NCBI RefSeq assembly: GCF_039654945.1
Contig: NW_027361768.1
Location: forward strand, 5,704,001-5,768,000
Reading direction: 5' to 3'
Origin: Dendrobates tinctorius
Lineage: Eukaryota
DNA length: 64,000 nt
Below, one piece after another: positions 2,800 to 49,411 of this stretch. The notes under the pieces are model-generated. The model did no database searches and was not told the origin of the DNA. It worked only from the letters and a program-made list of their open reading frames with translations. The first letter of the stretch is position 1. Each line of letters begins with the position of its first letter. The position numbers were made by a program, and so were the translations under genes.

Positions 2800-3022
2800 T
2801 GTTGCAGGGATACCACGACAGAGAGTAATTGGAAGATAGCGGGGTTTGGTTTCACAAACTCCTGTACTGGTTAGAAGTACTTCACCTTGTTATTAAACAG
2901 TGCACGTTTCTTCCTTGCTCTCAGTGCAAGGATTAATCTGTTCGGTTGGGGAAGATCTACCAGGATTGTCTCAGCTGTTCTGTGTTGGCCACTCCCTTCT
3001 GCTATATATATATATATGCATG

Positions 3023-4171
3023 TGAAGCGCCCCAGGGGCCGTGGGTTACTCGGTGCCAGGCCGGTGTCTTAAAGGGATGTGTCACGGTGACAGTGACCCT
3101 GTCCGTGGCCCCAAGCATTCATGTAAAATTAAGGGAATTGAATAGGAATAAAGTTTGTGTATAAGTCGCGACGCCACCTGTGGTTTCTGGTCAGAGTTGA
3201 CCATCGCTGCAGTAAGATGCAGCATAGTCGGTAAAGCTCTCCACAGGGAGAGCAGTAGTCCCAGGTCAGCTGAGAGTAATTTAGAGATGATGTTATAGTG
3301 TGGAGTAAGCAATGTAGCAGTGCTGGGTTGGTGACGCAGGAAGAAAGCAGATGACACAGTTGAGTGCTGTTTCAAGACTTTACTTACAGTTCTGGTGCAC
3401 ACAGATGCCCACTTCAGTGCTGTGTTCGCCAGGTGATGGGTCCAGCCAACTTCCAGGCAAAATAGAGTACACCCAGCACTCCCTGTCAGTATGTACCTTC
3501 CCTGGTCATCTCCACAATGCAGCTTTTCCACTTTCCTTCCTTCCCAGCCCTTCACAGTCAGTGCTCCAGGCCAGCAGCTGCAAATCCTGTCAGACAACGG
3601 GTACAATCCACTTCTTTGATCCTATATAGCTGCCATTCTGGTGAGAATAACTGTGGTAAGTTGCTGTGGCCTATAAAGTGACCACAACTGTCAGCTTGCT
3701 AGTCGAGTTTGATGTACACTCCGCTAGGCTAGGGGCTGAGTCCCTTTTGCGACCTGGTTCCTTCCTCCACCTGACGTCGGTCAGCGTGGAACAAGACCCA
3801 CGGGGATCATGCTTTACCCGTTGCCTCTGGAAGAACCACTTTCCCTTCAGGGAGTTTTCTGTCCAAGCCGATCCATCCAGCAGCTTCTAATGACAAGACC
3901 TGCTCCAGACCTGTCCTTCTCCTTTCCTCCCTCTGAGGGAACTCAGCTCACATCCTACAATTCTCCCTGTCTCCAACTACACTCCGCACACCTCCCCTAC
4001 ACTCTTCGTGTACCAAGCAGGGGCCATAAAGGGTGCTCTGCTATTCTATGTGTGTGTGGGATGCGGGTGTGGAATGTGGTCAGGTGTCTCCATCCTACCT
4101 TGTCGTGGGATACCACACCTCTGGGTGAGGTGCAGTATCTCTGTGGTGACTGGACCCTCAGGGGCCCCACA
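3023..4171 (-). repeat. 3' LTR of the cold-shock-domain element (1149 bp)
   Basis: + strand tgaagcgcccc...ggggccccaca; colinear with 6385-7500 + 8378-8434. Confidence 0.9.
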
Positions 4172-4183
4172 TTCCCCCCCCAT
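4172..4183 (-). promoter_or_regulatory. Polypurine tract (PPT)
   Basis: Minus strand reads atggggggggaa immediately before the TG of the 3' LTR. Confidence 0.8.
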
Positions 4184-4746
4184 TGAACCCAGCATGTCCG
4201 AAGGCTGAAATAAAATACAAGATGTTACAGGAACATACAAAAAAATATTTTTGAAACATTACTACCAGTAGTTATGGTATAACAAAGTGCTTTCAATAAA
4301 CGGTAATAATCATTGGTAAATGGTGGATACTGGTCCAGCCGGAGTATCTTCAAATGTCCTTTTTGCTGGTAGAGGACATGCTCCAAACCTCCAACGGTGG
4401 TCCTGGGTTGGCTACAGGACATAACTGGTCTTCTTCTTTATACCCTGTCTTCGGCCACACCCAACAGGTTTTTGTTCAGGTCTGTCATAGTTGTGCAATG
4501 ATGAGTCCTTATTTTCCTAAAAGGTTTAGGTAAAACTAAGCGGGAGCAAGTAAAGAGGTGCGGAACTATTTACAGAAAAAGTTTTTGGATCACACATTGT
4601 TCATTATCTGTCAGGTTTTTTTTACTTTAAGGAAAATCAACAGAGAAAACTGGAAACTTGCATAGAACTTGAAACTTGCATAAGGAAATTGTGCAAAACC
4701 CTCCTGGGTTAACTATTTATAACTTGTGAAAAGTTCTGTTCACATT

Positions 4747-6150
4747 TCATTGTAGCTTGTCACTTCCTGGTGCATGGGAAGTGCTTTGTCCTCCTTGCTT
4801 CCAAGGTAAATGATCTGGATGCCCACTACAGGGAGGCATGAGGAATTGAGTGCTGTCATCTGGCTGAGCCCCTCCTGGTGGAGCTGGAATAGTGGCTGCT
4901 TGCTGGGGTGGAACTACAGCCTGTTGTCTTATTGAAGCTGGTGTCAATGCTGCTGTAACTATTGGAGCTGTTGCGGCGGCTATTGGGGCTGCTGTTGTTG
5001 CTGTCACCCCCTGGAGTTCGTACACAGCTGCCAGTTCTGCAGGGATTCTCCTGACATTCAGGGTATACCAGCCACGGGCTCCCAGATGGCGGGTGAAGGA
5101 CACGTTATTCACCAGGGAACAAATCACGCCCTGGGTGACCCCAGATAAGGTGCGCCTCCACGTCCCACCTGCTGACAAGCAGATCTGCAATTTCCTAAGA
5201 GTCCTGGATGAAGCCATACCCCTTATCATTTTCAAAATTGAGGACTTTGCCCCAGCCCAGAGGATCGCGTTGATCCACGCGTTCACCGCGGACCTGCCTC
5301 TTTGTCCTGAGATCCCGGTCTATCAGGGCCAGTCTCTGCTGGTGTCTCTCTTTTTTTTCTTTATCAAATTGTAGAAGCTGCCTGTGGCAGAACTCTTCGG
5401 TGGATAAGGGGAATCCCCTTGCTCTTGCCTCCAGCATACCTCCAGCAGGATTTTTCCACTTGTCACTGCCTGCGGGAGATGGCTGCGGTATGGGGACTGG
5501 TTGGAACATTCCAACAACAATATTGGAATATTCCCCCCTGGGTGTTGTTTACCGGTCCCATGTGATATCCATCACCACCTGCCAGACTTCGGGGTAGGTG
5601 GCAACCCGATGGGGCCTAACAGGCCCTCCCATGACTCAGGGGTGACGTGCGTACCTGTATCTTCAAGACCACAATATTCTTCCGCAGACGCCAGCAGCGC
5701 AGACACTGATGAGATGGCAGGGTCCGGTGAGGGTGGTATTAAGGGACAGGTCTCTGGTGCTGGTGACGGGGTACCTGAGCAGTGGCAGTGGGTACCGGTG
5801 GCGGTGATAGCCCGAGGGCAGACCCCTCCTGGGTTTGCTGCTTCGTTCACTGCAGCTGAGCCTGTCTCAGCTGCAAGCTTCGGTTCAGCTGCGCAATTTC
5901 ATCTTCCAGCTGCACCAAGTCAAGTTCTTCCAGAGGGCCGGAACTTGGTACTATGGAGCCAGGTGAGAGGTGTATTTCCTCACCATGCTCTGCAGGTCTC
6001 CTTCCACTCTCCATGATTGCTGCCTGGTGTTGTGGCTTCTTCCTGGCTCTTTTTCCCGCTGTGGAGCCTCTCTCCTCCTCTTGGGGGTGGTGTCTTTTCC
6101 CTTTGCCACCATACCAGGCTAGTACCCGGACTCCTCTGGGCGTTGGCCAT
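4747..6150 (-). pseudogene. Decayed ~450-codon ORF: coiled-coil/Pro-rich N-terminus, cold-shock domain (5047-5257), Ala/Thr/Pro-rich tail
   Basis: Joining frames gives GWGKVLNFENDKGYGFIQDS*EIADLLVSRWDVEAHLIWGHPGRDLFPGE/VSFTRHLGARGWYTLNVRR. RNP-1 KGYGFI, an RNP-2-like DLLV and L..GE.V.F....G.RG....NV match the CSD pattern. Stop at 5195-5197, 1-bp frameshift at ~5105. The start is uncertain. Confidence 0.8.
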
Positions 6151-6364
6151 GATGCTGTTGCATAGAAATACAGGCAAGAGAGATTCATGATGTTTTGCAC
6201 CTTTTCCTGAGTGCCACCCACGATGACACGCCTCACTGCACTGCTGTGGCGGCCATTTTCATTCACAGTTCAATTCACAGTCTAATAAATTCATTCTTTT
6301 GCACATTTTTCTCAAATCCATCAAATCTTCAGCACACAGGACGCAGTGACACCGGGCTTCATCA

Positions 6365-6381
6365 TCCTGTTCGTGATGCCA
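6365..6381 (-). promoter_or_regulatory. Primer-binding site (tRNA-type)
   Basis: Minus strand TGGCATCACGAACAGGA, 3 nt after the 5' LTR. Partly resembles the tRNA-Lys(UUU) PBS TGGCGCCCGAACAGGGAC. Confidence 0.7.
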
Positions 6382-6384
6382 AAA

Positions 6385-8434
6385 TGAAGCGCCCCAGGGG
6401 CTGTGGGTTACTCGGTGCAGGGACGGTGTCTTAAAGGGATGTGTCATGGTGGCAGTGACCCGGTTCGTGGCCCCAAGCGTTCATGTAAAATTAAGGGAAT
6501 TGAATAACAACTAAGTTTGTGTATAAGCCGTGACGCCACCTGTGGTTTCTGGTCAGTTGACCATCGCTTCAGCACAGATCCTCTGGGACAGATGGTAAGA
6601 TGCAGCAGAGTTGGTAAAGCTCTCCACAGGGAGAGCTGTAGTCCCAGGGCAGCTGAGAGTAATTTAGAGGTGGTGATGTAGTGTGGAGTGAAGGATGTAG
6701 CAGTGCCGGGTTGGTGATGCAGGAAGAAGGCAGATGACACAGATGAGTGCTGTTCCAAGACTTTACTTACAGTTCTGGTACACATAAATGCCCACTTCAG
6801 TGCTGTGTTCTCCAGGTGAGGGGTCCAGCCAACTTCCAAGCAAAATGGAGTACACCCTTCCAGCACTCCCTGTCAGTATGCACCTTCCCTGGCCATCTCC
6901 ACAATGCTGCTTTTCCACTTTCCTTCCTTCCCAGCACTTCACAGTCAGTGCTCCAGGCCAGCAGCTGCGAATCCTGTCAGACAATGGGTACAATCCGCTT
7001 CTTTGATCCTATATAGCTGCCTTTCTGGTGAGAATAACTGTGGTAAGTTGCTGTGGCCCATAAAGTGACCACAACTGTCAGCTTGCTAGTCGAGTTCGAT
7101 GTACACTCCGCTAGGCTAGGGGCTGAGTCTCTTTTGCGACCTGGTTCCTTCCTCCACCTGACGTCACTCAGTGTGGAACGAGACCCACGTGGAGTATGTT
7201 TTACCCGTTGCCTCTGAAAGAACTACTTTCCCTTCAGGGAGCTTTCTGCCCAAGCCGATCCGTCCAGCAACTTCTAATGACAAGAGCTGCTCCAGACCCG
7301 TCCTTCTCCTTCCCTCCCTCTGAGGGAACTAAGCTCACATCCTACAATTCTCCCTCTCTCCAAGTACACTTCGCCCACCTCCCAACACTCTTCTTGTACC
7401 AAGCAGAGGCCATAAAGGGTGCTCTGCTATTCTATGTGTGTGTGGGATGCGGGTGTGGAATGTGGTCAGGTGTCTCCATCCTACCTGGTCATAGGATACC
7501 TGTTATGAATGGGTCACCGAAGAGGAAAAAAACAACAAGCTAAGTCTCAGAAAACCAGAGAAGTTGGTAACTATGCAGATTTCAGATCCCTGATCTTAAC
7601 CACACAACTAGCAGCAGTCGTGGAGCATTCCTACGATGGTCGTAGATGCATCATCACAACCAGAGAGCTACATAAGCCTAAAGCAGGAAAAGAGGAAAAC
7701 TAACTGCCCCAGAGCAGACCCCAAAGGAAAGACAGCCCCCCACATGTATTGACGGTGAAACAAGATGAAAATACAAACAAAGGCAGGAAAATAGGCTGTG
7801 CAAACGATGGGGCCCGACTAACTAGAAAGGACAGGAAAGGAAAGACACTGTCTGCAATCTGCCAAAAAAAAACTACCAAAATAATGTCCAACACTTCTGA
7901 TAGCAAAATTAACCCTGAAGTCACTAGACTTCTCCCACTATATCAGCACTCTGAAATATTCTGAGACAGAGCAAAAAGAGGCCAATCTAATAAGGGACAA
8001 AAAAGGCAGATTGGCAAATACAGATAAATAGGAGTGGAAATTCAGCATAGCCCCAGCAGGGGCTGGCTGACCACACAAGAAACTGAATTGACCAACAAGC
8101 GCAAGTGTGAACATTAGCAAAAAAACAAACTTAACTTGAGAAGACTGGAAGAGAGCTGAAGTCCAAGACCTGAGAAGCAGACTGAATCACCAGCACCAGG
8201 ATAGGGCGTCGGCTGTCTTATATCCAGTCTGATACTCCAGAGATCCAATTGTTATCCTCCTCATCAGGTGGCAGATCACTACTACTTAAACCAACCTCAC
8301 TACCTGTCACCACCAGAGGGAGAACGGAAGGAGAACTCTCAACTGGTGGAGCAGAAAATGAGCTCATAATAGATACCACACCTCTGGGTGAGGTGCAGTA
8401 TCTATGTGGCGACTGGACCCCCAGGGGTGCCACA
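6385..8434 (-). repeat. 5' LTR of the cold-shock-domain element, interrupted by a solo LTR
   Basis: tgaagcgcccc start, ggggtgccaca end; homologous to 3023-4171. Confidence 0.9.
7501..8371 (-). mobile_element. Solo LTR (871 bp), family X, 6-bp TSD
   Basis: TGTTATGA...TCATAATA termini; gatacc at 7495-7500 and 8372-8377; reverse-complement homologue of 11854-12672. Confidence 0.85.
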
Positions 8435-10109
8435 CATGCCTCTGGAACTTAGTAATTGACAGTGTCAGTTCTTACTGCCTGGTTAGAAGTTGGATATAAA
8501 CTTCATGGTTTAAATTGGCATTTGGACCTTTGTTCAGGAGATTGTTGTTTGGAGTTTTTTGTGTGCACGTTCTCATTCATTCCTATTTGGTTTCTTCCTT
8601 CCTTTAACTCCACTATATTCCACTTTCTTTGGTGAGTGTATTTTGTATTATTGTTATTTTCATTTATCCCTGTCCGTCTTACCTTTTTTGTCTAGTTAGT
8701 GTCATGCTATACACTTCATTTTCCCAGCTCCCTGGTTGGGGGAGGGCACAGATACAGCTTGATATAGGAGCATAGGAAGGTACGTGAATTCAGCGTCTCC
8801 ACATTCAGAAGTAATCCAGAGGACAGGGATAGACTAGGGTACCCCTAGTTCTAGAAACATGTTTAGTACCCACAGTCCCAAGGCACTGCATGACAGATTA
8901 CAGGAGAAAATGCACAGAGCAATTTTTTGCGCAATTTCTCCTGAGTGCGCCAATACCCCATATGTGGATAAAAACTACTTTCGAGGCCCAATGCAAAACT
9001 CAGAAGGGAATAAAAGCCATATTGGGGTTCAAATCTTGCTAGAATGGATTGTGCCATGTCACATTGGCAGAGCCTCTGAGGTGCCAAAACAGCAGAAATC
9101 CCCCATATGTGACTGCATTTTACAGATTACACCTCTCAATGAATTCATCTAGGAGTGCAGTGAGCATGTTGACACCATATGTGCCTCACAGAAATTTATA
9201 CCATTGGATGGTGAAGAAAGAATAATTAAATATTTGGGGCAGAAGCAACATTTTAGGCATAAAAACATAATTTTGATAAGGTGTAAAATAATAATAATCA
9301 CACACTAAAAGATGCTTTTTTTTGCAAAAAATAGTTTCTACATCACCATATTTTGCAAGCTATAATTTTCCTATATTTCTGCCGACAGAGTCTTGTGAGG
9401 ACTTGCCTTTTGCGAGTCGAGTTCATGTTTTTATTGGTACCATATCCGGGCATATATAATTTTTTTTATCTCTTTCTATTCCGATTTTTAGAAGGCAGAA
9501 TGAAACGGCAATTCAGGAATTGTTTTTTTTTTTATACTGTTCTGTGTGTGGTAAAATTGACAGGCAGCTTTATTCTTCGGGTTAGTACAATTACAGCTAT
9601 AGCTCTTTTATGACTTATTTATGTTTTGGTGCTTTTACTCAAACAAAACTTTGATAAAAAAATTATTTTTACATTGCCATATTCTGAGATCTACAACTTT
9701 TTAATTCTTCAAGCCTTATGGCAGCATGTTTTTTGCGGGACAACATAACGTTTTCAGCGAAACCCCTTTTATTTACATTCATCATGAAATAAATTATTTT
9801 TGCATCATTATCTGGAGTGCCAAATTTCTTATACTATATTTACATTCATCTTTTTGATCACATTTTATTCCACTTGTTTCAGGGACATAATGAAAAACCA
9901 TAGTTTGCCACTTTTTTTAAGGTGTTCACTGAAGAGGTTAACTATTGAGTGACAGTTTTATAGATCTGGTCTTTCCTGACTTGGCGATACCAAGTGTGTA
10001 CTTTTTTATATAAAATGTGTATTTACTGGTGTAATATTTTTTATTATTTTGTAATTCTTTGTTAATTTTACTATTTACTTTTTACTTTAATGTTTTTACT
10101 TTGCAGTAA

Positions 10110-11853: not shown

Positions 11854-12672
11854 TGTTGTGAGTTCATTTTTCCCTTCACCATTGAGGTCTGATGAACTCC
11901 CTCCTCTGGTGAAGGAAGGTAGTGAGGCTGATTACCAAACACATGGGCAGCTAGATGATGACTGGGTGGCTGGAATTGAGGACTGGATATAAGGCTGCCG
12001 ACGCCCTTCTTCCTGGCTGGTGATTTTCCTGCTGGATTCTTGGAGACCAGTCTGATTCCTGCATCTCAAAGCTAAGTTTTTCTGCTCTGCTTTGTACTCT
12101 TCAGTTTTGTTTTTGTTTTGCCTTGTTTTTTGGGAGTTCTGCCATCCCCGGCCGGGGGTGAGCTGAATTCCATTTTTGTCTCTGATCTGTTGATCTTTTG
12201 CTCTGTCTTCAGAATATACCTGAGTGCTGATATAGTCTTTTGAAGCCTAGCGACTTCAGGGCCTGTTTTTCCTATCAGTCTGTTGGCTCATTTTCATAGG
12301 GTTTTTGCGGATGGCAGACAGCAGCTTTCTTATCCTGTCCTATGTAGTTAGCTTGGGCCCCATCATTTGCTCAACCTATCTTTCTATCTGTGTTAGTGTT
12401 TTCATCTTGCTTCACCATCATTATATGTTGGGGGCTGCCTATTGCTTTGGGGTCTGCTCTGGGGCAGTTTAGTTTTTCCCCTTTCTGTCTTTAGGCTATA
12501 TAGTTCTCAGGCTGTGATCGAGGGGTCTAGGGCACCGTAGGAACCCCCACGGCTACTGCTAGTTGTTGTGGATAGGTTCAGGGGTCTGCAATCCGATAGC
12601 TGCCAACCTCTCTGGTTTTTCTGGACTTAGCTTGTATTTTGTTTTTTCCTCCTTCGGTGACTCATCATAACA
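11854..12672 (+). mobile_element. Solo LTR (819 bp), family X, 6-bp TSD
   Basis: TGTTGTGA...TCATAACA termini; perfect acgcgg at 11848-11853 and 12673-12678; TATA-like gatataagg at ~11986. Confidence 0.9.
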
Positions 12673-14696
12673 ACGCGGCACATGAATTGCCGGCTTTTCA
12701 AATGCGATTGATGTGTGAAAATCAGACAGCACTCGGATGGTTCGAGTGCTGTGTGATTTTTTTCACACCCATTGACTTCTATAGCGGGATGCGATCCGAT
12801 TTCCGATTACAATCTCAGCATGCTGCGACTTTTTTCCAGTCCGATTGTGATCCGATCCACCTGGAAAAAAAAACGCAAATGAACACACAATCATAGAATA
12901 ATACTGGTCCAAATTCAATTCAATTTTTTATCGGATTGCACTTGTCCAATTTTATCGCAAGTGTGAATGAGCCCTTAGGCTGGAGTCACACTTGCGAGTG
13001 TGAAGCGAGAAACTCGCGCAAGTCTCTGGCATCAATACCACACTCAGACACAGTGCTTTTCTCTTGGGAGCAATATAAGGCATCACAGGAAGCATTTCTA
13101 TTTAACCCCTTCACTCACGGGCCTGTTTTCACCTTCATGACTGGCCAAATTTTACAATTTGACCAGTGTCAATTTATGTGGTAATAACTCTGTAACGCTT
13201 CAATGGATCCCACTTATTCGAAAACTGTTTTCTTGTGACATATTATATTTCATTATAGTCGCAAAATTTATTTGATATGACTTTTTCGTATTTGCGAAAA
13301 AAATGGAAATTTGTCAAAAATTTTGCAACTTTCAAATTTATATTTTTGTGCACCTTAATCAGAGAGTTATATCACACAAAATACTTATTATTACTTAACA
13401 ACTTATTAATAAGTTATAAGAATAACTTATAACAAGTAATTATAACAAGTATTATAACAACAACTTGTTATATCTTATAACAAGTAATTCTTATAATAAC
13501 TTATTATTTCCTAACAAATAAGTAATTATTATAAAGGTAACAGGAAAAAATTGACCCAAAAGTATGTAGTGAAATTTCTCCTGACGATACCCCATATGTG
13601 GGGGTAAATCACTGTTTTGGTATATGGCAGGGCTCGGAAAGGAAGGAGCGCCATTTGACTTTTTGAATGTAAAATTTGCTGGATTAATTAGCTGACGCCA
13701 TGTTGCATTTGGAGAGCCACAGATGTGCCTAAACTGTAGAAAACCCCCACAAGTGACACCATTTTGGAAACTAGACCTGTCAAGAAACTTATCTAGATGT
13801 GTGGTGAGCACCTTCAACCCCCAGGTGCTTCACAGAATTTTATAACATTAAGCCATGAAAATAAAAACAATAACATTTTCAGTACAAAAATATTTTTTCC
13901 AGGACTTCCACCTGACAGCACCATGGAGGACGTCCCCCTCCTCCTTACAGGGACAGGAAAAGCACACGAGAGGTTAAAAGGTCATGTCCCACCCCCTCTC
14001 CCTCAGTGTTTTCCTGTCCCTGCACGGAGGGACACACGAGAGACCGCTGTGAACTTACCGGAGGGGCTCAGGGGATCGTGCGGCCAGTCCAATCCTTCCC
14101 CTGTCAAGAGGTCCCAGGGCCGAAACTCCCCGAGGGGGAGTCCCTCTGCTCCAAAGGCCAGGAGCAGGATGACACTCCTGGAGGGAGCCGTTCCTCCCTG
14201 TTGGAGGCTCTCTGCTCCATGATACTCCACCATAGCAGGCGAAGGTCGGCTCCCCGTAGGCGGCTGGCCGGGCGGGCGGGCACCAACAGAGAAACAGCGC
14301 AGTTGGCGCAGGCTGCGGCTCCAGCAGTCCGCCATAGCAGGCGGAGGTCGGCTCCCCGCAGGCAGCTGGCCGAGCGGGCACCGGCGGCAGATCAGCGCGG
14401 TTGGGCGCAGGCGCAGCCCGGGCAGGAAGTGGAAGGAGGCGGCCTATCGAGAAAGTTCGTGTTATGTCCGGTGACGTCGCACGCCGGGTTTGAATTCCAG
14501 CGTGCGCTCCAGAGGCCCACATCGCTCTGGAAGCACAGATCGCGCAGGATGGAAGGAAACGCTCCGGCAGGTGGAGGGGTAAGTGCGCCTGGCGCAGACC
14601 ACCCTCCCCACACCCATTTCCGTAGCCCGGGACTGAGACGGTTACCCCATCTTGTATTATTAGGATAAGGGAACCCCAGCAGAATCCCCCTCTGGG

Positions 14697-16097
14697 GTGA
14701 AGGACCCGGCTAAAGCCACCTCCAAGTCGGTCCGATGCCCCGTATGCAGGATAAAGCTGCCAGACACCTATAACAAGACCCTATGCGGGCCCTGTACCTC
14801 TAAGGTCATAGTCGAGGAACAACCATCCCTCCTTTCCGAGATGAGATCATTGATAAGGGAGGAAGTCCAGGCCTCTAGAGCCAGCCTCGCACGACGTCAG
14901 TCCCCCAGCCCAGGGCCGAGCCGCAAGCACCCAAGGTGGGAAGCAGATCCAGTTTCGGAAGCAAGCCCTAGCGAGGAGTCCGACTTCCGTGATTCAGATC
15001 AGGGGGAAGAAGGCGAGATCCCGGGGGATAGACAGGACCAGGGCAGGAAGTACCTGTTCAGACTGGAGGACATGGACGAGTTGGTCCAAGCAGTCAGAAA
15101 TACTATGCAAATGGAGGAAATCCCTAAACCGCAGTCCAGACAGGACTTAATGTTTGGAGGACTGGTGGCTTGGAGACAGGTCGTGTTCCCCGTAAGTGAG
15201 CACATCAAGACGATGGTCCAGGAGGAGTGGAAAGAGGCAGAACGTTGGTTGATTCTCTCCCGAGACTTTAAGAATAGACTGCCTTTTGATCCCGAGGAAA
15301 CACGGGCATGGGACGAAGTCCCTAAAATAGACGTTCCAGTAGCCAAGGTTACCAAGAAGACGGCCATCCCATTTGAGGACTCGTCAAGTCTCCAAGACCC
15401 AATGGATAGGAAGGCGGACGTCTTGTTAAAAAGAACATGGGAGACGTCGGCGGCTCTTATTAGGGCCAATATAGCAGCCACCTCGGTGGCCAGGTCTATG
15501 TTTTTGTGGATGGGGCAGTTGGAGGAGCACCTAACCAACAAGACCCCTAGATCAGAGATCCTAGCATCACTTCCCCTTATGAAATCGGCCACGGCGTTCC
15601 TATCGGATACGTCGGCGGAGTCAGTGAGGTTTGCAGCCAGAAACAGCTCCCTCACTAATGCAGCCCGAAGAGCAGTCTGGCTTAAATCCTGGTCGGGAGA
15701 TAACGCCTCTAAAACAAAGCTATGCGCTATCCCCTTCTCGGGCCTGAGGGTATTTGGTCAAGCCCTAGATAACATTCTAGAGCAAGTGTCCGATAAAAAT
15801 AAAGGGTTCCCAGAGGAAAAACCCAAGCGGCCCCAGTCCTTTCGGAGAGTCTCCTTCTCTAGAAGACAGACGGACTTCAGGGGTCGGGCTAGGTCCAATA
15901 GAGGCTTCTATAGGAGCTCCTACAGCCAGGGTGGGAGGAACAAGGGTTCCCTGTTCACATCAACATCCAGATCTAGGAGGCAATTACGCCATAGGTATTG
16001 GGGGAGACTGCCCCACTTCGCAGCAAACTGGTCCCGAATCACCCACAATCAGTGGGTCCTCAGAACCATCGCAGAGGGCTACAGTATAGAGCTCTAG
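14697..16097 (+). CDS. gag: DIRS Gag-like ORF1 (N-terminal CxxC...CxxC, LAP2alpha-like C-terminal domain); runs into the pol frame
   Basis: CPVC...LCGPC, PKIDVPVAKV, DPMDRKAD, AARRAVWLKSW, PFSG..FG motifs. Confidence 0.8.
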   Translation: MKDPAKATSKSVRCPVCRIKLPDTYNKTLCGPCTSKVIVEEQPSLLSEMRSLIREEVQASRASLARRQSPSPGPSRKHPRWEADPVSEASPSEESDFRDSDQGEEGEIPGDRQDQGRKYLFRLEDMDELVQAVRNTMQMEEIPKPQSRQDLMFGGLVAWRQVVFPVSEHIKTMVQEEWKEAERWLILSRDFKNRLPFDPEETRAWDEVPKIDVPVAKVTKKTAIPFEDSSSLQDPMDRKADVLLKRTWETSAALIRANIAATSVARSMFLWMGQLEEHLTNKTPRSEILASLPLMKSATAFLSDTSAESVRFAARNSSLTNAARRAVWLKSWSGDNASKTKLCAIPFSGLRVFGQALDNILEQVSDKNKGFPEEKPKRPQSFRRVSFSRRQTDFRGRARSNRGFYRSSYSQGGRNKGSLFTSTSRSRRQLRHRYWGRLPHFAANWSRITHNQWVLRTIAEGYSIEL

Positions 16098-17866
16098 TCT
16101 CCTCCCCCCGACAGATATGTTGCCCCCACCGTTGTCCTGGCGGACTCCGCAATGTGGACGGATCTTCAGGACATGGTCAACTCAAAAGTTATAGTACCAG
16201 TTCCCCCGACGGAAAGAGGAAGAGGGCATTACTCTTCCCTGTTCTCGATCGCAAAACCATCCGGCGAGGCCCGTACCATCATAAACCTGAAACCACTAAA
16301 TGCCTGGGTCAGGTACAAGAGATTCTGAATGGAATCAATCCAATCCGCAATACTCCTAATAGACAGGGACGCAGTTATGTGCACCCTAGACCTAAAGAAG
16401 GCATACTATCAGGTCCCTTTCCATCCCTCATCCCAGAGGCTACTAAGGTTTGCGGTCAGTTTGCCAGCCCGGACATGCCACTTCCAGTTTCAGTGCCTTC
16501 CATTTGGGTTAGCTTCAGCTCCCAGAATCTTTACAAAACTGGTGGTGGAGATGGTAGCCTACCTGAGGGATCAAGGTATCGTGATCATTCCATATCTAGA
16601 CGACTTCCTACTGGTGGTAAGGTCAGAAGAAGCGCTCATTCGAGACAGAAACAGAGCAACGACCGTAATGGAGTCCCTTGGCTGGGTGATCAATTGGACG
16701 AAGTCGGACCTCAGGCCAGACACAAAGAAAGTATTCCTCGGAGTCCTTCTAGACTCGGCCAGCAGAATATCCCGGCTACCCGAGAGGAAGCAGAAAACTA
16801 TTCAGGCCAGGGTCAGAGATCTGTTGGAGCGACAAGGCTCCATAAGAGAGGCAATGGAAGTTTTGGGCCTCATGACGGCCTGCATCCCATGTGTCCGATG
16901 GGTGCAGTTCCACTCGAGATCATTACAGAGGGAGATCCTCGCAAAGTGGGACAGAAGGCAGACGTTGCTCGACAAACCCCTATGGCTTCCAGAACGGGTG
17001 AAAGAGTCCTTACGGTGGTGGACACAGCCCAGAAACCTTCAGGTGGGCGTACTATGGATAAACTCTCCATACGTGATAGTCACCACGGACGCCAGTATGT
17101 GGAGATGGGGAGCCCACATAGAAGGGAAGATCTCCCAGGGAAGACGGCCAGTAGACATCAGGACCAGATCATCCAATTTCATATAGCTCTACGCGGTCTG
17201 GGAAGCGCTGCGGCAAAACCAGGCGGTACTAAGGAATCGTCACGTTCGCATATTATCCAACAATGTAACGGCAGTGGCATTCCTGAAACACCAGGGAGGG
17301 TCCAGACATCAACCACTGCAGGCCCTGGCGGGAAGAATATTTGCTTGGGCAGAACGAACAGTCCAATCAGTAACCGCAGTGCACTTAGAAGTTTCCCAGA
17401 ACGAAGTAGCAGACTACTTGAGCAGACAACAGATCCACCTGACAGAGTGGGAACTGAACGGGGAAATCTTCAACATCTCTGTCAGCGTTGGGGGACCCCC
17501 AGTATAGATCTATTTGCACGCTGAAAGATTGCAAAGGTTCCCAGATTCTGCTCCATGAATGCGGCGGACCATTCGGAGGCCGTAGATGCCCTGAGCCAGA
17601 CTTGGGGAGAGCCCCTCTCTTATGCATTACCACCACTGGCTCTCATACCGGCAGTGCTCAGGAAGATACGTGAGGACCACGCAAGAGTGATGTTGATCGT
17701 CCCATACTGGACAAGGAGAAGCTGGTTTTCCCTGCTAGGAGCCATGGCAGTAGGAAATCCAGTTGAACTACCCCGGTGGAAGGACATCATTCACCAGGGC
17801 CCGATCCACCATCCGAACCCAGCAAGACTCCACCTATCAGCTTGGATCCTGAGAGGGACATCCTGA
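15990..17866 (+). pseudogene. pol: DIRS RT - RNase H - methyltransferase-like ORF, disrupted
   Basis: LDLKKAYYQV, LPFGLASAPRIFTK, PYLDDFL, TTDAS..WGAH, IDLFAR, YALPP; stops at ~16095, 16326 and 17184 plus frameshifts. Confidence 0.9.
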
Positions 17867-29129: not shown

Positions 29130-29422
29130 ATATTTGTGGCTATGCCTGCCGATGCCCCTCCAGCAGCAGCGCACGCCGCAACGTCTCCTTACCTACGCGC
29201 CCCCGTCCAGGCGCGCGCCCGTCCTGCGTTCCTCCTCACAGCTGCTCCTGGCACCCGCTCCCTGTTGCGCGCGCGCCCCCTCCCGCTCTCTCCCTCCAGC
29301 GGTGGGCGGCGCTGAGGGGCAGGACAGGGGGACGCACTTCCGGGTGCTGGGATACTTCAGGCGTCCTCGCTATGTGGAGGACGCCTGATGATCGTGTAGT
29401 CTCCTGCACCCTCTGGCCGCTA

Positions 29423-29670
29423 CAGTCCTCTGTAGTTCCTCTTGTCCCTTCTCTGCCCCCCTGCCGTGCCCTCTGTCACAGTCCTCTGTTGTTCCTCCAG
29501 TCCATGCCCTGCCTCCCTACCGTGCCCTGTGTCACAGTCCTCTGTTGTTCCTCCAGTCCATGCCCTGCCTCCCTGCCGTGCCCTGTGTCACAGTCCTCTG
29601 TTGTTCCTCCAGTCCATGCCCTGCCTCCCTGCCGTACCCTGTGTTACAGTCCTCTGTAGTTCCTCTTGTC
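29423..29670 (+). repeat. 56-bp tandem repeat inside LTR B (mirrored at ~36110-36350)
   Basis: cagtcctctgttgttcctccagtccatgccctgcctccctgccgtgccctgtgtca, ~4.5 copies. Confidence 0.85.
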
Positions 29671-29953
29671 CACTCTCTATCTCACTGCCTTGTCCTGTGT
29701 CTCATTCCTCCGTCCGTCAGTCCCGGGTTCGTATCAAAGCCATCCTTCTCCCTAGTCCTTATTTGTCTGTGGAGCCGTCCCTCTTGGTTCCGGCTGTTGC
29801 GCTTCCGCCCCCTGTGGTCCTGCCCCAAACGATCCCTGTATAGGGCTCAGTCTTCACCTGGAGTCCTCGGCCCAGGGGCTCCGGATCCGTGATCCAGAGG
29901 GTCCACTCTCCGACGTAGCTCTTACCTAAGAAACGTCACAGTATCATCAGGAC

Positions 29954-30979
29954 ATGGACCCCGCCGGTGCCGCGGCTGCCACTCAAAAGGAACTACTGTT
30001 CTTAAGGGAAAATCAGACCCGGATTATGTCCTTCATGAAATCCAAGGACACCCGGCTTTCCGCCCTGCAAACCGCTGACCCTGGGCACGCCCCCCTCTTA
30101 GCCAGTCTCCATCAGGAGCTCGCACAGCAGCGTGACGCTCAATCTCACATTCTGGGGTACATGGCGTTCGTAGATGATCGGCTGCTTGCCCTGCAGTCCT
30201 CCGCGGCCGCCTCTACCCAACCCCGGGACGCTGTCCCAGCTCCCCCTCCCCGCCTTGGAAAGCCGCCCAGGTATGATGGGGACCCGAAGTTGTGTGGGGG
30301 ATTTTTAAACCAGTGCAGACTGCACTTTGAGCTCCTGCCCCAACAATATCCCACGGACCGCGCTAAGGTGGCCTTTATTGTGTCCCATCTTGAGGGAGAG
30401 GCACTGGCTTGGGTGAATCCCTTATGGGAGAGAGATGACCCGGTGGTCACCAGTATCCAGAGTTTTTTGGAAACATTTTGCAAGGTATTTGATGAGCCCG
30501 GGCGCCTTGCTTCCACTACGGAGGCCCTCTTTAACCTTCGCCAGGGATCCCTGACGGTAAGGCAGTACGCCATCCATTTCCGGACCCTGTCCTCGGAGCT
30601 AGGGTGGAATAATGAAGCTCTTGTAGGTGCCTTTTGGAGAGGTCTTTCTAGTAAAATCAAGGATGAGCTGGCCTGGCGTGACTCTCCAACCACCCTGGAA
30701 GATCTCATCTCTCTGGCTACTCGTATTGATCTGCGCTTTCAGGAACGCGCCAGAGAGTCAGCCAGGGAGAGAAGGCCCTTTAGGTTATACCAAGCCCCCA
30801 TTCCGCGCGCTGTTGCACCCTCTAGTAACTCCGCTCCTGAGCCTATGCAGGTGGATCGCGTCAGGCTGTCCGAACAACGGCACAGGGAGAGGATGACTAA
30901 TGGACTCTGTTTATATTGTGGAGGGGCCAACCACTTCGTACGCACTTGTCCTGAGAGACCGGGAAACGCATCCACCTAG
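29954..30979 (+). CDS. gag: Gypsy B Gag (341 aa, uninterrupted; PEG10/sushi-type capsid plus CCHC knuckle)
   Basis: YDGDPKLCGGFLNQC, LEGEALAW, LRQG, PEPMQVD, CLYCGGANHFVRTC. Confidence 0.92.
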   Translation: MDPAGAAAATQKELLFLRENQTRIMSFMKSKDTRLSALQTADPGHAPLLASLHQELAQQRDAQSHILGYMAFVDDRLLALQSSAAASTQPRDAVPAPPPRLGKPPRYDGDPKLCGGFLNQCRLHFELLPQQYPTDRAKVAFIVSHLEGEALAWVNPLWERDDPVVTSIQSFLETFCKVFDEPGRLASTTEALFNLRQGSLTVRQYAIHFRTLSSELGWNNEALVGAFWRGLSSKIKDELAWRDSPTTLEDLISLATRIDLRFQERARESARERRPFRLYQAPIPRAVAPSSNSAPEPMQVDRVRLSEQRHRERMTNGLCLYCGGANHFVRTCPERPGNAST

Positions 30980-31006
30980 GCCAGGTAGGAGAGGGCTCCC
31001 TAGGTG
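30961..31006 (+). promoter_or_regulatory. -1 ribosomal frameshift signal (G GGA AAC plus downstream stem)
   Basis: gggaaac followed by cacctagg...cctaggtg pairing, as in PEG10/sushi elements. The same heptamer occurs in Gypsy C at ~40930. Confidence 0.8.
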
Positions 31007-34000
31007 ATCAGACCCCCTCTCTTCCACTTACTCTTTCAGCTCTGCTTATTACAGGTCGGGGGCGTGGCTCCATGGAGGCGTATGTGGACTCGGGCGCAGC
31101 GGGCAACTTCATCCACCAAGAAGAAGTGGACAAACTCCAGATTCCCGTGGTTGTCCTAAGAAATCCGCGAGCAATCACCTCTGTCAATGGCAAACCTCTG
31201 CCCGGACTCGTCACCATGGTTACCACCGAAGTTGAGTTACAAATTGGTGCACTTCACTTCGAGAAGATTGCCTTTTATGTCCTGCCTCAACTATCCCACG
31301 CCATTCTCTTAGGGTTACCCTGGCTCAGGCGGCATGAGCCAGTTGTCGACTGGCGCTCCGGGGAGATCTTGCGCTGGGGCACGCCTGCCATGCACGCTGT
31401 TTGCGGGCCTTTGTTCGTCCCCATTCTCTGCCTAGGCCAACCGATCTCCCGGGCCTTCCTGTTCCATACCACGCCTACGCTGATGTTTTCTGCAAGAAGG
31501 AAGCGGTTTCCCTGCCTCCACATCGGTCCTATGATTGCCCTATCGACCTGATTCCCGGAGCTGTCCCTCCCAGAGGAAGAACGTACCCTCTTTCGCCAGC
31601 CGAGACCTCTGCCATGACGGAATACATTCAGGAAAACCTGACCAAGGGGTTTATCCGGAAGTCCTCTTCCCCTGCGGGCGCAGGTTTTTTCTTCGTCCGG
31701 AAGAAGGACGGATCCCTGCGGCCTTGTATAGATTACCGGGGCCTAAACAATATCACCGTTAAAAACCGATATCCCCTTCCGTTGATTCCTGAGCTCTTTG
31801 ACCGGCTGAGGGGAGCTCGGATCTTCACAAAGTTAGATCTGCGGCGGAGCTTACAATTTGATCCGGATCCGTGCAGGGGATGAGTGGAAAACGGCCTTCA
31901 ATACCCGTGACGGGCATTATGAATACTTAGTCATGCCATTTGGTCTTTGCAACGCACCAGCTGTATTTCAAGAAATTATCAACGAGGTGTTCCGTGATCT
32001 GCTCTATTCCTGTGTGGTGGTGTATTTAGACGACATTCTCGTTTTCTCGCCCGATCTGTCCTCCCATCGCAGGAGCGTACGCTTGGTCTTGCATTGCCTT
32101 CGAGAGAATCGACTCTACGCCAAGATTGAGAAATGCCTTTTTTAGCAGACGTCATTGCCCTTCTTGGGATATATCGTCACCGATTCCGGTCTGAAGATGG
32201 ATCCCGAAAAACTCAGTGCGGTACTCAAGTGGCCCCGTCCAGTGGGGATAAAGGCCATCCAGCGGTTCCTTGGGTTCGCAAACTATTACCGTCAATTCGT
32301 GCCTTATTTTTCTACGGTTACCAAACCCATCACGGCCTTGACCCGTAAGGGAGCAAAACCCAACATCTGGTCCCCCGAAGCTGAAGACGCCTTCCTGGCT
32401 CTGAAACGTTCTTTTGCATCTGCACCCATCTTGCACCGGCCAGTGACCAGCAGGCCCTTCGTCCTAGAGGTGGACGCCTCCTCCACTGGAGCAGGGGCGG
32501 TCCTGTCCCAGCAGGCTTCATCTGGGCGCCTGGTTCCCTGCGGTTTTTTTTCTAAAACCTTTTCGCCTGCGGAGTGCAACTACTCCATTGGAGACCGGGA
32601 ATTACTTGCCATTAAGATGGCCTTGGCTGAATGGCGATATTTACTCGAGGGGGCTGTACATCCTTTCACCATCCTTACGGACCACAAAAATCTGGCTTAC
32701 CTGCAGTCTGCCCAAAGACTCAATGCCCAGCAAGCCAGGTGGGCCCTGTATTTCTCCCGCTTTGACTTTCAACTTCACTTTCGACCTGGTAATAGGAACA
32801 TCAAGGCCGATGCCCTTTCCAGGTCGTTACAGTCACCGGAGAGGGATGAAGACCCATCCTATATTATCGAGCCTGCTAAGATGATCACCGTGGCTCCTGT
32901 GAATTTCTCCACTCCCCCGCCAGGTAAAACTTTCGTCCCTCAAGGCAGACGTTCAGAGGTGCTGCGCTGGGGGCATTCCTCCAAAGTTGCTGGGCACATT
33001 GGGACTAAGAAGACTCTCTTTCTGCTTTCCCGGTATTACTGGTGGCCCACGCTTCACCAGGATGTGATGGACTATGTAGCCTCGTGCACAACCTGTGCCC
33101 AGAACAAGGTGGCTAGGGCTTTGCCCTCCGGTCTTCTTCACCCATTACCAGTTCCTGAGGCTCCTTGGCAGCAAATTGCTATGGATTTGGTGACTGATTT
33201 ACCCTGCTCAGCTGGATGTACCACCATCTTAGTCATAGCAGATCGTTTTTCCAAGATGGCCCACTTTGTTCCCTTACCGGGACTGCCGTCCGCCCCGAAG
33301 TTGGCCGAGATCTTCATCCACCAGATCTTCAGGCTGCATGGTCTTCCTCAGCGGATTGTGTCAGATCGGGGGGTCCAGTTTACCTCTCGCTTCTGGAGGG
33401 CTCTCTGTCGGCTTATGGGTACATCTCTCGACTTCTCCTCTGCATACCATCCTCAGACCAACGGGCAAGTGGAGCGAATTAATCAGGTGTTAACTACCTT
33501 CTTACATCACTTCTCCAACGCCCATCAGGACAATTGGGTCGCGCTCCTACCTTGGGCTGAATTCTCGCACAATAACCATCCCAGCAAATCTACCGCCAAG
33601 TCACCATTCTTTGTGGTAACCGGCCAAAATTCAGGTGTTCCGCTACCCTTCTCCACGTCTACGGGAGTGCCCGCAGCAGATTCACTCGCAATGGAATTCT
33701 CGCAGATTTGGAGGGAGACCAGGGAAGCGCTCAAGAGTGCCAATAACCGAATCAAGAAACATGCGGACAAAAGACGAAAGGAAGTGCCTCCGTACCATCC
33801 GGGTGACAAAGTCTGGCTTTCAACTCGACATATCCGTCTGAGAGTTCCCTCTTACAAGTTGAGCCCTCGGTACATTGGACCGTTTGAAGTGATCGGACGC
33901 ATTAATGAGGTGGCTTATAAGCTGAGGTTGCCTGCTTCGCTCCGGGTTCCCAACGCCTTCCATGTCTCGCTCTTGAAACCCGTAGTCCTGAACCGGTTCC

Positions 34001-34229
34001 AACCAGTTTCCATCACCCCTCCATCACCAGTTGCTTCGGACGACGTCTTTGAGGTCAAAGACATCTTGGCTATGAAAAAAGTCAAGGGAAAGACCCTTTT
34101 CCTTATCGATTGGAGGGGTTTTGGCCCTGAGGAAAGGTCCTGGGAGCCCCGAGAGAATATCAATGCCCCCCGGATTCTGAAAACGTTTTTGGCCAATCTC
34201 AGTAGGGGAGGACGTAAGGAGGGGGGTAC
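30980..34229 (+). pseudogene. pol: Gypsy B pol (protease, RT, RNase H, integrase, chromodomain), few lesions
   Basis: VDSGA, YLDD, DAS, HHCC, D-D-E, FEVKDIL..WRGFGPEERSWEP; frameshifts at ~31380 and ~31845, stop at ~32143. Confidence 0.93.
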
Positions 34230-36645: not shown

Positions 36646-38583
36646 ATATCATCCAGATAGACAACCACCGAAGAGGAAAGCATATCTCGAAAGATATCGT
36701 TTACAAAGTCTTGAAAGATGGCTGGGGCATTACATAGGTCAAAGTGCATGACCAGACACTCATAATGGCCATCCCTGGTATTAAAAGCCGTCTTCCACTC
36801 GTCTCCCTCATGTATGTGTATCAGGTTGTAGGCTCCCCGCAGATCGAGTTTGGTAAATACTCTTGCTCCTCACAACCTATCGAACAGCTCCGATATCAGG
36901 GGCAGAGGGTACTTTTTCTTAACGGTGATGGCATTAAGACCCCTGTAATCGATGCAAGGTCGCAATTCACCGCTCTTCTTCTGCACAAAGAAGAATCCCG
37001 CCCCTGCTGGTGACACCGACTTCCTAATATATATCCTGGTCAGATTCTCCTTGATGTACTGTGACATGGCCTCCGTCTCCGGGAGAGACAGGGGATACAC
37101 ATGACCCCGGGGAGGCTCTGCACCAGGCAAGAGGTCTATAGGACAGTCGTAGGGGCAGTGCGGCGGGAGAGTCTCTGCCGCTTTCTTGGAGAACACATCT
37201 GCGTACTGCTGATAGTGTTTAGGGAGCGAAGAGAGATCTGCAGGAGCCGCAGTGGCGGCAACCTGAACGCACTTGCTCAGACATCTACCCTCACAGGACT
37301 TACTCCAACTAAGAATTTTCCCCGAGGACCATTCAATATGGGGAGAGTGGCAATGCAACCAGGGAACTCCCAAGAGAACCTGATCGATACCCTCGGGCAT
37401 AATAAGGAGGGACACTGTCTCGTGATGGGACGAAGACAATGATAGTCTTAATGGAGCAGTCTGATGGGTAATCTGCGAGGGTAATGTCGAGCCGTTCACC
37501 ACTCTGATGGTGACCGGCTGAGGTAGCATAACCAAGGGGATTGCGTGCTGGAGAACGAAGGCTGAGGACATAATATTACCCTCCGCTCCGCAAGCCTCCA
37601 CCACCAGAGTGGAGGAGCTGAACTCCAGCACCCCCTTGAAGGTTAGCTTGGAGGAAAATGGTGTGGTGTCTCGTAACCCTCCTGCTGTTGCCACTAGACA
37701 CAAGCGTTTCTCCGAGCGCTGTGGGCACCTATTGGCAAAGTGACCAGACTGTCGGCAGTGGGAATGAGGTATGGGAGTTCGAGCAGGACGGAACTTAGAG
37801 CATGTGCGAGGCACCTCCATAACCACCGATCACTTGGACGCTCGATCGGGTGGCTCCAGATGTTTAGAGAAAGTTGGAGCCAACCTAAACCTCTGTCTGG
37901 ACTGGAAGTGCTCCAACCCTCGCTCTAAGAAGCAGAGATTAATGAAGGTGGAGATGGTAATAAGCTCCTCCAGAGTACCGGGAACCTCCCGAGTGGCCAG
38001 AGCATCCTTATCGTGGTCAGCCAAACCCCTCCAAAAGATTGGTATTAGGGCCTTATCTGACCATTCCAACTCGGAAGCCAGTGTCTGAAAACGAATGGCA
38101 TACTGGCTGACCGGAGTACGAACCCTGTGTCAGGGCCAACATCTGGAGCGCGGTATCGAGTGTGACCCTTGGTCCCAGAAAGACCTGCTTCAGATAATCT
38201 AGGAATGGAGAGGCTCTCTGAACCGCAGGGTCACCACGCTCCCACAGTGGGGTGGCCCACTCCAGAGCCCTGCCAGCCAGAAGGGAAATGATTAATCCGA
38301 CCTTAGCCCGCTCAGAGGAGAATCGTGCGGCCAGCAGCTCTAACTGAATAGCACACTGGCTCATGAATCCCCTACAGGAGGCACTATCGCCCGAGAACTT
38401 CTCGGGCAGCGGGAGGTGGGATAACATCGGTGCAGGGATGGAAGTGGAAATACGGGAAACAACCTCCGTGGCTGCCTGAGCAGCGGCCGCAGTAAAATTC
38501 ACAGATGAGGTTGAACGCTCGAGAGCCGCCAACCTGACTCCCAGCTGCCGAATGTGCTACAGTAGCGGCTGTTTATCCGCCAT
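36646..38583 (-). pseudogene. Gypsy A gag, protease and 5' RT
   Basis: [54 protein letters not shown]. Confidence 0.9.
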
Positions 38584-49359: not shown

Positions 49360-49411
49360 AGCGACATCAAACGACGTTTCGGCCACATCAGCCTTTATCA
49401 CAAAGTCGCTG
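49360..49411 (-). ncRNA. Hammerhead-like motif of PLE 2 (variant core)
   Basis: AGCGAC uuug UGAUAAA GGCU-gaugu-GGCC GAAAC GUC GUUU gau GUCGCU; inverted copy at 51953-52003. Confidence 0.55.

Follow-up and report, generated by a model that had tools for sequence, protein, structure and literature searches.

A frog LTR retroelement family lacking gag and pol carries a cold-shock-domain gene under purifying selection

Results

An LTR element with a single decayed reading frame

The window, meaning the whole stretch of DNA analysed here, comprises 64,000 nt of the Dendrobates tinctorius genome (GCF_039654945.1, NW_027361768.1, positions 5,704,001-5,768,000, forward strand). An LTR element lies on its minus strand (Table 1). 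A preliminary description, made from the sequence of the window, had read it as a provirus-like unit with paired LTRs, CATG target site duplications (TSDs), a primer binding site (PBS), a polypurine tract (PPT) and a ~2.2-kb interior; this stands, save that the end of the 3′ LTR is corrected to 4171, and a search of the interior for gag and pol found neither. The two LTRs are 93.1% identical (1011 matches and 75 mismatches in the main part, 58/63 in the tail), and the R/U5 part of the 5′ LTR is about 70-74% identical to the LTR of the candidate helper element described below. The 871-bp insertion that splits the 5′ LTR is bounded by a 6-bp GATACC duplication and matches window positions 12196-12672 at 78%. 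A tRNA-Ser(CGA) gene in the genome (L092) matches the PBS.

The single ORF has its homologous start at the ATG at 6306, ~60 nt past the PBS, and is broken. The one stop and one frameshift bridged in the preliminary description are both present, as a TAG at 5195-5197 and a shift near 5105 that split the peptide resembling a cold-shock domain (CSD), but they understate the damage: at least five frame segments were found, and the ORF therefore has at least four frameshifts plus stops. With an X at the stop, the peptide matches the Pfam CSD at E=0.0049, under the cut-off, so the window copy alone is weak evidence for a CSD. The coiled coil and charged segment described ahead of the CSD were both located in the window and are helices in models of relatives.

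Table 1 Features of the LTR element in the window
Feature	Position	Strand	Basis
TSD CATG, 5′ side of element	8435..8438		direct reading
TSD CATG, 3′ side of element	3019..3022		direct reading
5′ LTR (TGTGG...TTCA), split by unrelated insertion	6385..8434	-	93% identity to 3′ LTR
Secondary insertion, solo-LTR-like (TGTTATGA...TCATAATA), 871 bp	7501..8371		inside 5′ LTR
PBS	6364..6381	-	17/18 match to family PBS; complementary to tRNA-Ser(CGA) 3′ end
Decayed single ORF	4747..6306	-	tblastn vs natural relatives L042, L057; alignment A1; ~500 aa when unbroken
Coiled-coil helix (LEDEIAQLNRSL segment)	5850..5933	-	helix 129-157, pLDDT 95, in relative's model
Long charged helix ahead of CSD	5270..5398	-	structure models and dN/dS of relatives
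CSD, broken in window copy	5053..5251	-	Pfam, structure, dN/dS of relatives
3′ non-coding region	4182..4746	-	relatives: no codon-position signal, dN/dS about 1
PPT	4172..4181	-	similar G-run before 3′ LTR in relatives
3′ LTR	3023..4171	-	LTR comparison

The element belongs to a multi-copy family

The CSD is not peculiar to this copy, being found in 150/150 scored genome hits. Full-length frames occur in 7 of 50 family B copies and 2 of 44 family A copies, leaving 85 of the 94 without one. Retrotransposition has occurred many times, as shown by the distinct 4-bp TSDs (CATG, GAAC, TATC, CACG, GATA) that flank paired TG...CA LTRs at different loci; the LTR pairs of relatives are 92-98% identical, as in young insertions. 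Interiors span 1.8-2.7 kb and lack pol; where pol lies near a copy, it falls beyond the element's ends or belongs to a nested element. A candidate autonomous CSD-bearing element (L190) was rejected on this ground, as the adjacent pol is enclosed by its own nested pair of LTRs (97.7% identical).

Unbroken relatives encode ~500 aa arranged as a basic N-terminus, a coiled coil, a Pro/Ala linker, a charged helix and the CSD. The N-terminus (aa 31-95, pI 11.5) holds conserved Arg/Lys-rich motifs, among them WYGG-RRRRP in 9 rows of alignment A1; these look NLS- or ARM-like, and a nuclear role would fit them equally well. In family F the same architecture recurs with a different LTR, PBS and likely helper. 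Families A/B and F have the CSD in common but not the N-terminus, and family F carries a Cys motif (dN/dS 0.13).

Four of eight PBS-selected members with both LTRs (L103, L108, L109 and L110) are CSD-less. L108 and L110 have one common CSD-less interior that has spread with its frame still conserved (dN/dS about 0.4), and the CSD is thus not needed in cis for mobilisation. That such members spread too is counted against the explanation favoured below.

Homologues exist in poison frogs and in Bufo. Several have gene annotations in frog assemblies, each forming a singleton cluster and together no conserved orthologue set. Word-index protein searches gave two Bufo proteins with P0007 and no match with P0001 aa 130-325; L187 had no match against longer proteins, which is weak evidence, and every lead from the ESM Atlas was below 0.9. 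In three runs guessed to be RNA, contigs on the family B stretch cover just the 3′ non-coding part, and contigs from one run of uncertain kind cover part of the family B CSD, which has no bearing on expression.

A cold-shock domain probably captured from a Y-box mRNA

All 11 natural unbroken frames match PF00313, five of them over the curated cut-off, which none of the four family F frames reaches. Since natural unbroken relatives match, chance resemblance is excluded. The AF2 model of the CSD (pLDDT 73) is a five-stranded OB barrel with 47 Foldseek matches at E<=0.001; the matches listed are all cold-shock-type, with TM-scores of 0.86 to CspA and 0.76 to YBX1 (6ktc). Together these results confirm the CSD identity first proposed from the broken copy. 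The full-length model had no Foldseek match at E<=0.001.

Among A/B copies the RNP1 Phe is retained in 34/34 and the RNP2 Phe in 33/34. By contrast, the equivalents of YBX1 W65 and H87 are replaced in all 34, and 32 have a new β5 Trp. Because both equivalents are lost, affinity or specificity may differ from that of YBX; CSDs bind single-stranded DNA as well. The fold is common to YBX1/2/3 (FRGY2) and the element, whereas the domains flanking it in YBX are unrelated to those of the element. The host YBX CSD is spread over four exons in the D. tinctorius genome, whereas the element CSD is intronless.

The least derived element CSDs (L187 and the Bufo protein P0007) align to YBX1/2 without gaps, have them as best PDB hits (E=6e-13 and 1.5e-8) and keep the YBX-length long loop after RNP2. 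A/B and F CSDs match bacterial Csps best, with E between about 1e-2 and 1e-5. A bacterial horizontal origin was nevertheless rejected, as these bacterial hits are weak and YBX is by far the better match for the least derived CSDs. In a tree of 76 columns only, element-type CSDs fall together on one side (SH-aLRT 94, unstarred), and the AU test does not reject placing them as sister to YBX (p-AU 0.52). Taken together, the sequences suggest that the CSD was likely captured from a host Y-box mRNA. The loss of the W65/H87 equivalents, the nearness of A/B and F CSDs to bacterial Csps and a tree that leaves the YBX origin undecided are also counted against the favoured explanation.

Purifying selection on the reading frame

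On variants shared between copies, dN/dS lies well under 1 (0.25-0.32 for the ORF), while private variants are neutral. Shared against private changes number 153S/102N and 152S/453N in family B (p=6e-22), and 142S/122N and 94S/338N in family A (p=1e-17). The CSD and the helix next to it, rather than the basic N-terminus, are the most strongly constrained parts: CSD dN/dS on shared variants is 0.06-0.07 in relatives and 0.05-0.07 across three families (family B, 39S/8N shared and 15S/42N private), as compared to 0.17-0.22 for the coiled coil and 0.15-0.18 for the charged helix, and helix plus CSD of family F give 0.05. The signal persists beyond the search query (family B aa 1-160, p=1e-6) and in six copies picked by PBS alone (CSD dN/dS 0.07, from the 6 of 15 pairs that were unsaturated). 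Shifted frames and the 3′ UTR have no comparable purifying signal. Changes inherited along active lineages thus preserve the protein, the CSD above all, while inserted copies decay neutrally, which places the selection in the mobile phase of the element.

Among distant pairs, divergence at four-fold sites is 0.18 for the N-terminal half, against 0.30 for the CSD and 0.39 for the 3′ UTR, and the N-terminal half is thus constrained at silent sites as well. Apparent third-position divergence is higher in the CSD than elsewhere. A special swapping of CSD modules is unsupported, as region trees agree on the deep split and differ just shallowly.

A likely gag-pol helper

The genome holds 4,785 PBS sites. 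Thirty sampled sites comprised 18 of the CSD-ORF family, 11 with gag-pol and one unclassified; the CSD class and the helper stand at 18 vs 11 and 17 vs 7 at sampled primer sites. The search for an autonomous partner thus found a gag-pol Ty3/Gypsy element with the same PBS and LTR ends, encoding a PNMA-like Gag, protease, RT, RNase H and integrase in PR-RT-RH-IN order. It shares R/U5, PBS and leader with family B (79% over 346 nt), and no CSD was found in 10 helper loci. For tRNA-Ser-primed reverse transcription the frog element possesses the cis signals but not the enzymes, its LTR termini resemble those of the helper, and the gag-pol element is likely to act as its helper in trans; family F likely has a helper of its own. 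Modelled as a complex, ORF aa 30-445 and helper Gag aa 35-345 scored 0.02, which gives no answer either way.

Discussion

The preliminary reading of a parasitic retroelement family with its own cold-shock protein is supported by these comparisons. We favour, at a probability of roughly 0.55, a high-copy LTR family without gag and pol that is served by a likely Ty3/Gypsy helper and whose selected ~500-aa gene encodes a protein with a probably Y-box-derived CSD that would bind the element's own RNA and aid its survival and its uptake by helper particles. For the selected protein of a multi-copy element, the benefit would have to be biased to its own RNA, in cis or by sequence specificity. The protein is predicted to bind that RNA: the CSD and basic N-terminus would coat or chaperone it, and the coiled coil would serve either in self-association or in contact with helper Gag, actions that would offset the packaging advantage of the helper's own mRNA. 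In keeping with this, YB-1 is reported to stabilise the RNA of HIV and to aid the production of MLV and MMTV (PMC6040738).

More tentatively, the element types may represent a satellite class, in which at least two independent frog Ty3/Gypsy helper systems are each parasitised by non-autonomous elements with one gene alone, a repurposed Y-box CSD joined to a coiled coil, the protein being an adaptor that would load parasite RNA into the helper particle. Such an adaptor would be comparable to the proteins with which satellite viruses and phage satellites hijack packaging.

It is less likely, though possible, that the protein is a family-specific nuclear regulator rather than a packaging aid: either a Rev/Rec-like RNA export or stability factor, or one that recognises specific sequences in the family's own LTRs to counter silencing or drive transcription. 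Such a role would suit the Arg/Lys-rich motifs, the oligomerisation-type coiled coil and the Cys motif of family F, and would account for the persistence of CSD-less derivatives with a conserved N-terminal half. VANC of VANDAL elements is a precedent for an accessory protein of this kind. Another is Rec of HERV-K (PMC13269885). However, constraint peaks on the CSD and its adjoining helix, and it is the CSD, not the N-terminus, that A/B and F have in common.

Selection at the level of the host, with a few source loci providing an oocyte Y-box-like RNA-masking protein and thousands of copies as by-products, is improbable. The CSD is host-like, some homologues are annotated as frog genes, and ERV Gag proteins are described as required in zebrafish development (PMC13269885), but constraint is seen on many parallel lineages (A, B, F and CSD-less) with different LTRs and young insertions, and the annotated homologues are not conserved orthologues.

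It is less probable still that the ORF is a highly diverged Gag, its zinc knuckle replaced by the CSD, that forms its own particle as in Gag-only elements. It is the sole ORF, begins just past the PBS and is of Gag-like size, and Xenopus 1a11 has a Gag-like single ORF by its description (PMC4585706). Nonetheless, HHalign found no homology to helper Gag (probability 0.08%), no Gag or capsid Pfam family matched, and the full-length model, poor overall (pLDDT 49), is made up of long helices, disordered stretches and the CSD, and lacks a capsid helical bundle. That the CSD is a functionless passenger, as the broken window copy and the scarcity of full frames might suggest, is refuted by its low dN/dS on shared variants against neutral private ones and by the lack of signal in shifted frames and 3′ UTR, unless the alignments are grossly wrong.

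The usual view of non-autonomous LTR elements is that they lack coding capacity or retain Gag alone; those mobilised in trans include LARD, ETn, VL30, MaLR and TR-GAG. Known examples either have no coding sequence, contain sequence derived from small RNAs or retain Gag, whereas the frog element keeps a non-Gag protein; to our knowledge, no other keeps a host-derived, non-Gag protein under selection. TRIM, Cassandra and Helenus/Ajax have LTRs, PBS and PPT and lack pol, as does the frog element, and are mobilised in trans by a partner (PMC10886601). Xenopus 1a11, xretpos and lambda-olt 2-1, with 15-30 ORF copies (PMC4585706), and zebrafish Bhikhari (PMC13269885) likewise have a single ORF and no pol. 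By their descriptions the ORFs of 1a11 and Bhikhari are Gag-like, which sets them apart from the frog ORF, and the available descriptions of all four mention no CSD.

The preliminary description knew of no such vertebrate LTR family. Our literature search, with Repbase, Dfam and subscription papers outside its scope, returned no description of this family, but the claim needs narrowing, since 46 bird ERVs with CSDs, identified through RT and falling in ERV-A/B and ERV-G groups, were published by He et al. 2025 (PMC12287698). These are the closest precedent: vertebrate LTR elements that also captured PF00313, repeated capture being read as adaptive (PMC12287698). They are RT-bearing with a CSD of varying position, whereas in the frog elements the CSD gene is the sole gene; the frog family also has thousands of copies, measured purifying selection and a likely Ty3/Gypsy helper.

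Thus, one non-autonomous LTR class has kept a host-derived, putative RNA-binding protein under strong selection in several lineages, and poison frogs and Bufo have homologues. It offers a testable case of a retroelement parasite competing for the machinery of another element, and of how the diffusible protein of a multi-copy element can come under selection. CSD elements may have added to these very large genomes, and frog gene models labelled 'uncharacterized' or 'YBX2-like' are explained as element-type proteins.

The copy in the window

The minus-strand element in the window is bounded by a CATG duplication at both ends and carries two LTRs (93.1% identical), a primer-binding site (PBS) and a polypurine tract (PPT) around an interior of ~2.2 kb, as the preliminary description had proposed. 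Its further claim, that the interior lacks recognisable gag or pol, agrees with the absence of gag or pol matches in Pfam for eight interior frames. The proposed cold-shock domain (CSD) peptide is real but broken in this copy: with X at the stop it gives a Pfam E of 0.0049, below the cut-off, and alignment to unbroken relatives places the ORF between an ATG at 6306 and ~4747, spread over at least five frame segments. The solo-LTR-like insertion in the 5' LTR ends in near-perfect inverted repeats of 8 bp, has a 6-bp duplication and is related to sequence at 12196-12672.

Table. Features of the CSD-bearing LTR element (window positions)
Feature	Position	Strand	Remark
5' LTR	6385-8434	minus	carries an 871-bp secondary insertion
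Secondary insertion within 5' LTR	7501-8371		871 bp
PBS	6364-6381	minus
PPT	4172-4181	minus
3' LTR	3023-4171	minus

A large family encoding a cold-shock protein

The CSD-element family is large. In the 6.36-Gb genome, a 117-aa segment of the ORF in the window returned 3,248 candidates, and all 150 that were scored had E<1e-18; the CSD is thus not unique to the window copy. A query from the younger subgroup B found 4,519 candidates (150 scored, 78-100% identity) and a PF00313 search 5,472 (150/150 scored above the cut-off); the top 30 inspected from the latter comprised 27 element-type domains and three host exons, which we take to be CSDE1-like. Full-length copies, surveyed at 50 loci of which several had no complete LTR pair in the stretch examined, show paired LTRs (94-97% identical in clean B pairs), interiors of 2.3-2.5 kb and differing 4-bp TSDs. 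Repeat fetches of one place, short partial hits, one near-identical twin and four near-identical copies of a cluster on contig C126 were dropped before counting. Intact ORFs do exist among the relatives, as uninterrupted frames of at least 480 aa including the CSD were present in 7 of 50 B copies and 2 of 44 group A copies. The near-identical clusters (L022, L023, L025, L026 and L029 at G000 C126 17.4-19.3 Mb; others on C63, C161 and C172) are probably segmental duplications, and one adjoins a C2H2 zinc-finger array (L059).

The protein begins with a short Cys-containing start, an Arg/Lys-rich segment (pI 11.5), a coiled coil and a Pro/Ala-rich linker, followed by a long charged helix, the CSD, a low-complexity tail and a short terminal helix. 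The fold assignment was upheld: all 11 natural frames matched PF00313, five above the cut-off, and the helix-CSD structure model (pLDDT 73, pTM 0.60) gave 47 Foldseek matches at E<=0.001, all cold-shock-type domains among the matches listed, with TM scores of 0.86 against CspA of E. coli and 0.76 against YBX1. The RNP1 and RNP2 Phe residues are kept in 34/34 and 33/34 copies, respectively, while the equivalents of YBX1 W65 and H87 (our presumed numbering for the aligned positions) are substituted in 34/34 and a new Trp stands in CSD strand 5 in 32/34. The protein shows no similarity to the profile of the helper Gag.

Selection on the ORF

Variants were scored per codon column, leaving out codons in CpG context, and divided into private variants (one copy; mostly post-insertion decay) and shared variants (at least three copies; mostly inheritance from active lineages). 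Private, shared and CSD dN/dS values were 1.13, 0.25 and 0.07 for group B (50 copies) and 1.32, 0.32 and 0.06 for group A (44 copies, one of them the window's), placing shared variants below 1 in both. Controls gave 1.07-1.96 in shifted sense frames, 1.16-1.72 in two antisense frames, 0.44-0.55 in the antisense frame that shares third positions and 0.78-1.02 in the 3' UTR. Private and shared variants differed by Fisher test in B (p=6e-22) and A (p=1e-17), with p=0.43 for the B 3' UTR. Residues 1-160 of B, which were not in the search query, gave p=1e-6, and six copies picked by PBS alone had dN/dS of 0.39 in the N-half, 0.14 in the helix and 0.07 in the CSD (the last from 6/15 pairs, the remainder being saturated); ascertainment by protein search is therefore not the explanation of the signal. 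Some regions are under weak or no constraint (A linker, 0.95; A 81-125, 0.81).

In codons 1-160 of the family B ORF, silent-site divergence is below that of the CSD or 3' UTR, as expected with an overlapping packaging signal, which suggests that an RNA signal overlaps this part. Region trees of family B show shallow incongruence, consistent with recombination.

Likely helper elements and CSD-less members

The exact family PBS, which matches the 3' end of genomic tRNA-Ser(CGA), occurs at 4,785 genome sites (reversed control, 0). Among the first 30, a non-random sample from a single contig with three near-identical pairs, 18 led to the ORF family, 11 to gag-pol elements and one to neither. The gag-pol elements (interiors 5.6-5.9 kb where uninterrupted; LTR pairs 92-97%) encode a PNMA-like Gag, protease, RT, RNase H and integrase, and the CSD was absent at 10/10 loci. 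Judged by sequence, these are the likely helper, the autonomous partner that had been sought. Sequence in common with the CSD family is confined to R/U5, the PBS, ~50 nt of leader and short U3 patches; across R/U5, PBS and leader, identity is 79% to a B copy and 70% to the window copy. The family therefore did not arise by simple deletion from the present-day helper.

Four of the eight PBS-selected members with both LTRs have no CSD, and two of them (L108 and L110) possess one common alternative CSD-less 3' half in which the reading frame remains conserved (dN/dS ~0.4), which argues against a strict cis requirement for the CSD. Intact LTR pairs were seen in L108 and L110, and also in L103 and L109.

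Other lineages and origin of the CSD

Lineage C has LTR pairs 87-91% identical together with the family PBS at 3/8 loci. Lineage D is old (79-82% at two loci), and its PBS sequences, presumably tRNA-Ser types, differ from the family PBS. Family F (L296-L301, L308-L337) is a second non-autonomous family, also young (93-98% at 5/6 loci), with a different LTR of 0.7-0.8 kb and a second PBS. Its single ORF combines a Cys-rich motif with a Pro/Ala linker, a helix and a CSD that is shorter and under purifying selection (helix-CSD dN/dS 0.05; 11 usable pairs, 6 copies). Its PBS pattern occurs at 3,545 genome sites; of the first 30, 17 are of F type and 7 of gag/pol type, the other 6 being weak or unclassified. 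Family F likely has its own gag-pol helper as well. The counts (18 vs 11; 17 vs 7) thus point to two helper systems, each with a CSD-bearing parasite that appears to outnumber its helper in these samples.

Screening 1.84 billion representatives with a protein profile yielded 51 matches at E<=0.001. Uncharacterized proteins of Ranitomeya variabilis, R. imitator, Anomaloglossus baeobatrachus and Phyllobates terribilis make up the top five (E<=1e-23); Bufo bufo proteins were also matched (20/51 looked up). The host is thus probably a frog related to these species. For the least derived CSDs, Y-box proteins are the top matches and align gap-free (L187, which has no clear LTR pair: YBX1 E=6e-13 vs best bacterial match 2e-5; Bufo P0007: YBX2 E=1.5e-8); for CSDs of derived lineages the top scores, which are weak, are to bacterial Csps. 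In a tree of 76 columns, built without three long branches and one row that was incomplete, 36/36 element-type CSDs fell on one side (SH-aLRT 94), and placement as sister to YBX was neither supported nor rejected (p-AU 0.52). The host YBX CSD is divided among four exons and the element CSD is intronless, indicating capture via RNA if YBX was the source. P0007 and P0059, named 'YBX2-A-like', group with the element CSDs, and the gene model P0017 (Bufo bufo XP_040296155) joins an element-type CSD to a serine protease, either an annotation chimera or exonisation.

Possible function and known systems

For the CSD family, our data establish that it has been mobile, that it carries cis signals and lacks enzymes, that it has a likely helper and that selection acted on its protein while it propagated. 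Because the protein is made by a multi-copy element, we infer that its benefit must favour the element's own RNA. In the simplest reading, a Y-box-like coat or chaperone would stabilise that RNA and aid its competition for helper particles; action in nuclear export or anti-silencing is a serious rival. YB-1 is reported to stabilise HIV RNA and to support MLV and MMTV production (PMC6040738), and Gypsy RNA to be abundant in poison-frog ova (PMC6278860).

The view that no such vertebrate LTR family had been described stands in part: full-text literature searches turned up no report of the CSD family, nor did passages of PMC13583293, PMC12822217 and PMC10886601 describe it, but there is precedent for LTR elements capturing a CSD, namely 46 bird ERVs that were identified through RT (PMC12287698). 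Pol-less elements of Xenopus and zebrafish have a single ORF, which, where described, is Gag-like (PMC4585706, PMC13269885).

Other repeats in the window

A diverged LTR at 59557-60859 is related to the CSD family (69-84% in pieces) and adjoins a 69-bp tandem array that begins near 60930 and extends in the direction of the window end. At 14664-17524, long ORFs overlap one another, contain RT-like motifs and look DIRS-like. A large inverted duplication at 29138-36633 (arms 98% identical) surrounds Ty3/Gypsy-like gag and pol frames, with additional pol-like frames at 36870-37829 and 41612-44249. Several nested inverted repeats (150-470 bp, 96-97%) occupy 49045-56230, and a Tc1-like element at 57362-58973, whose 366-aa transposase frame is open and whose inverted repeats (210 bp) are 99% identical, looks very young.
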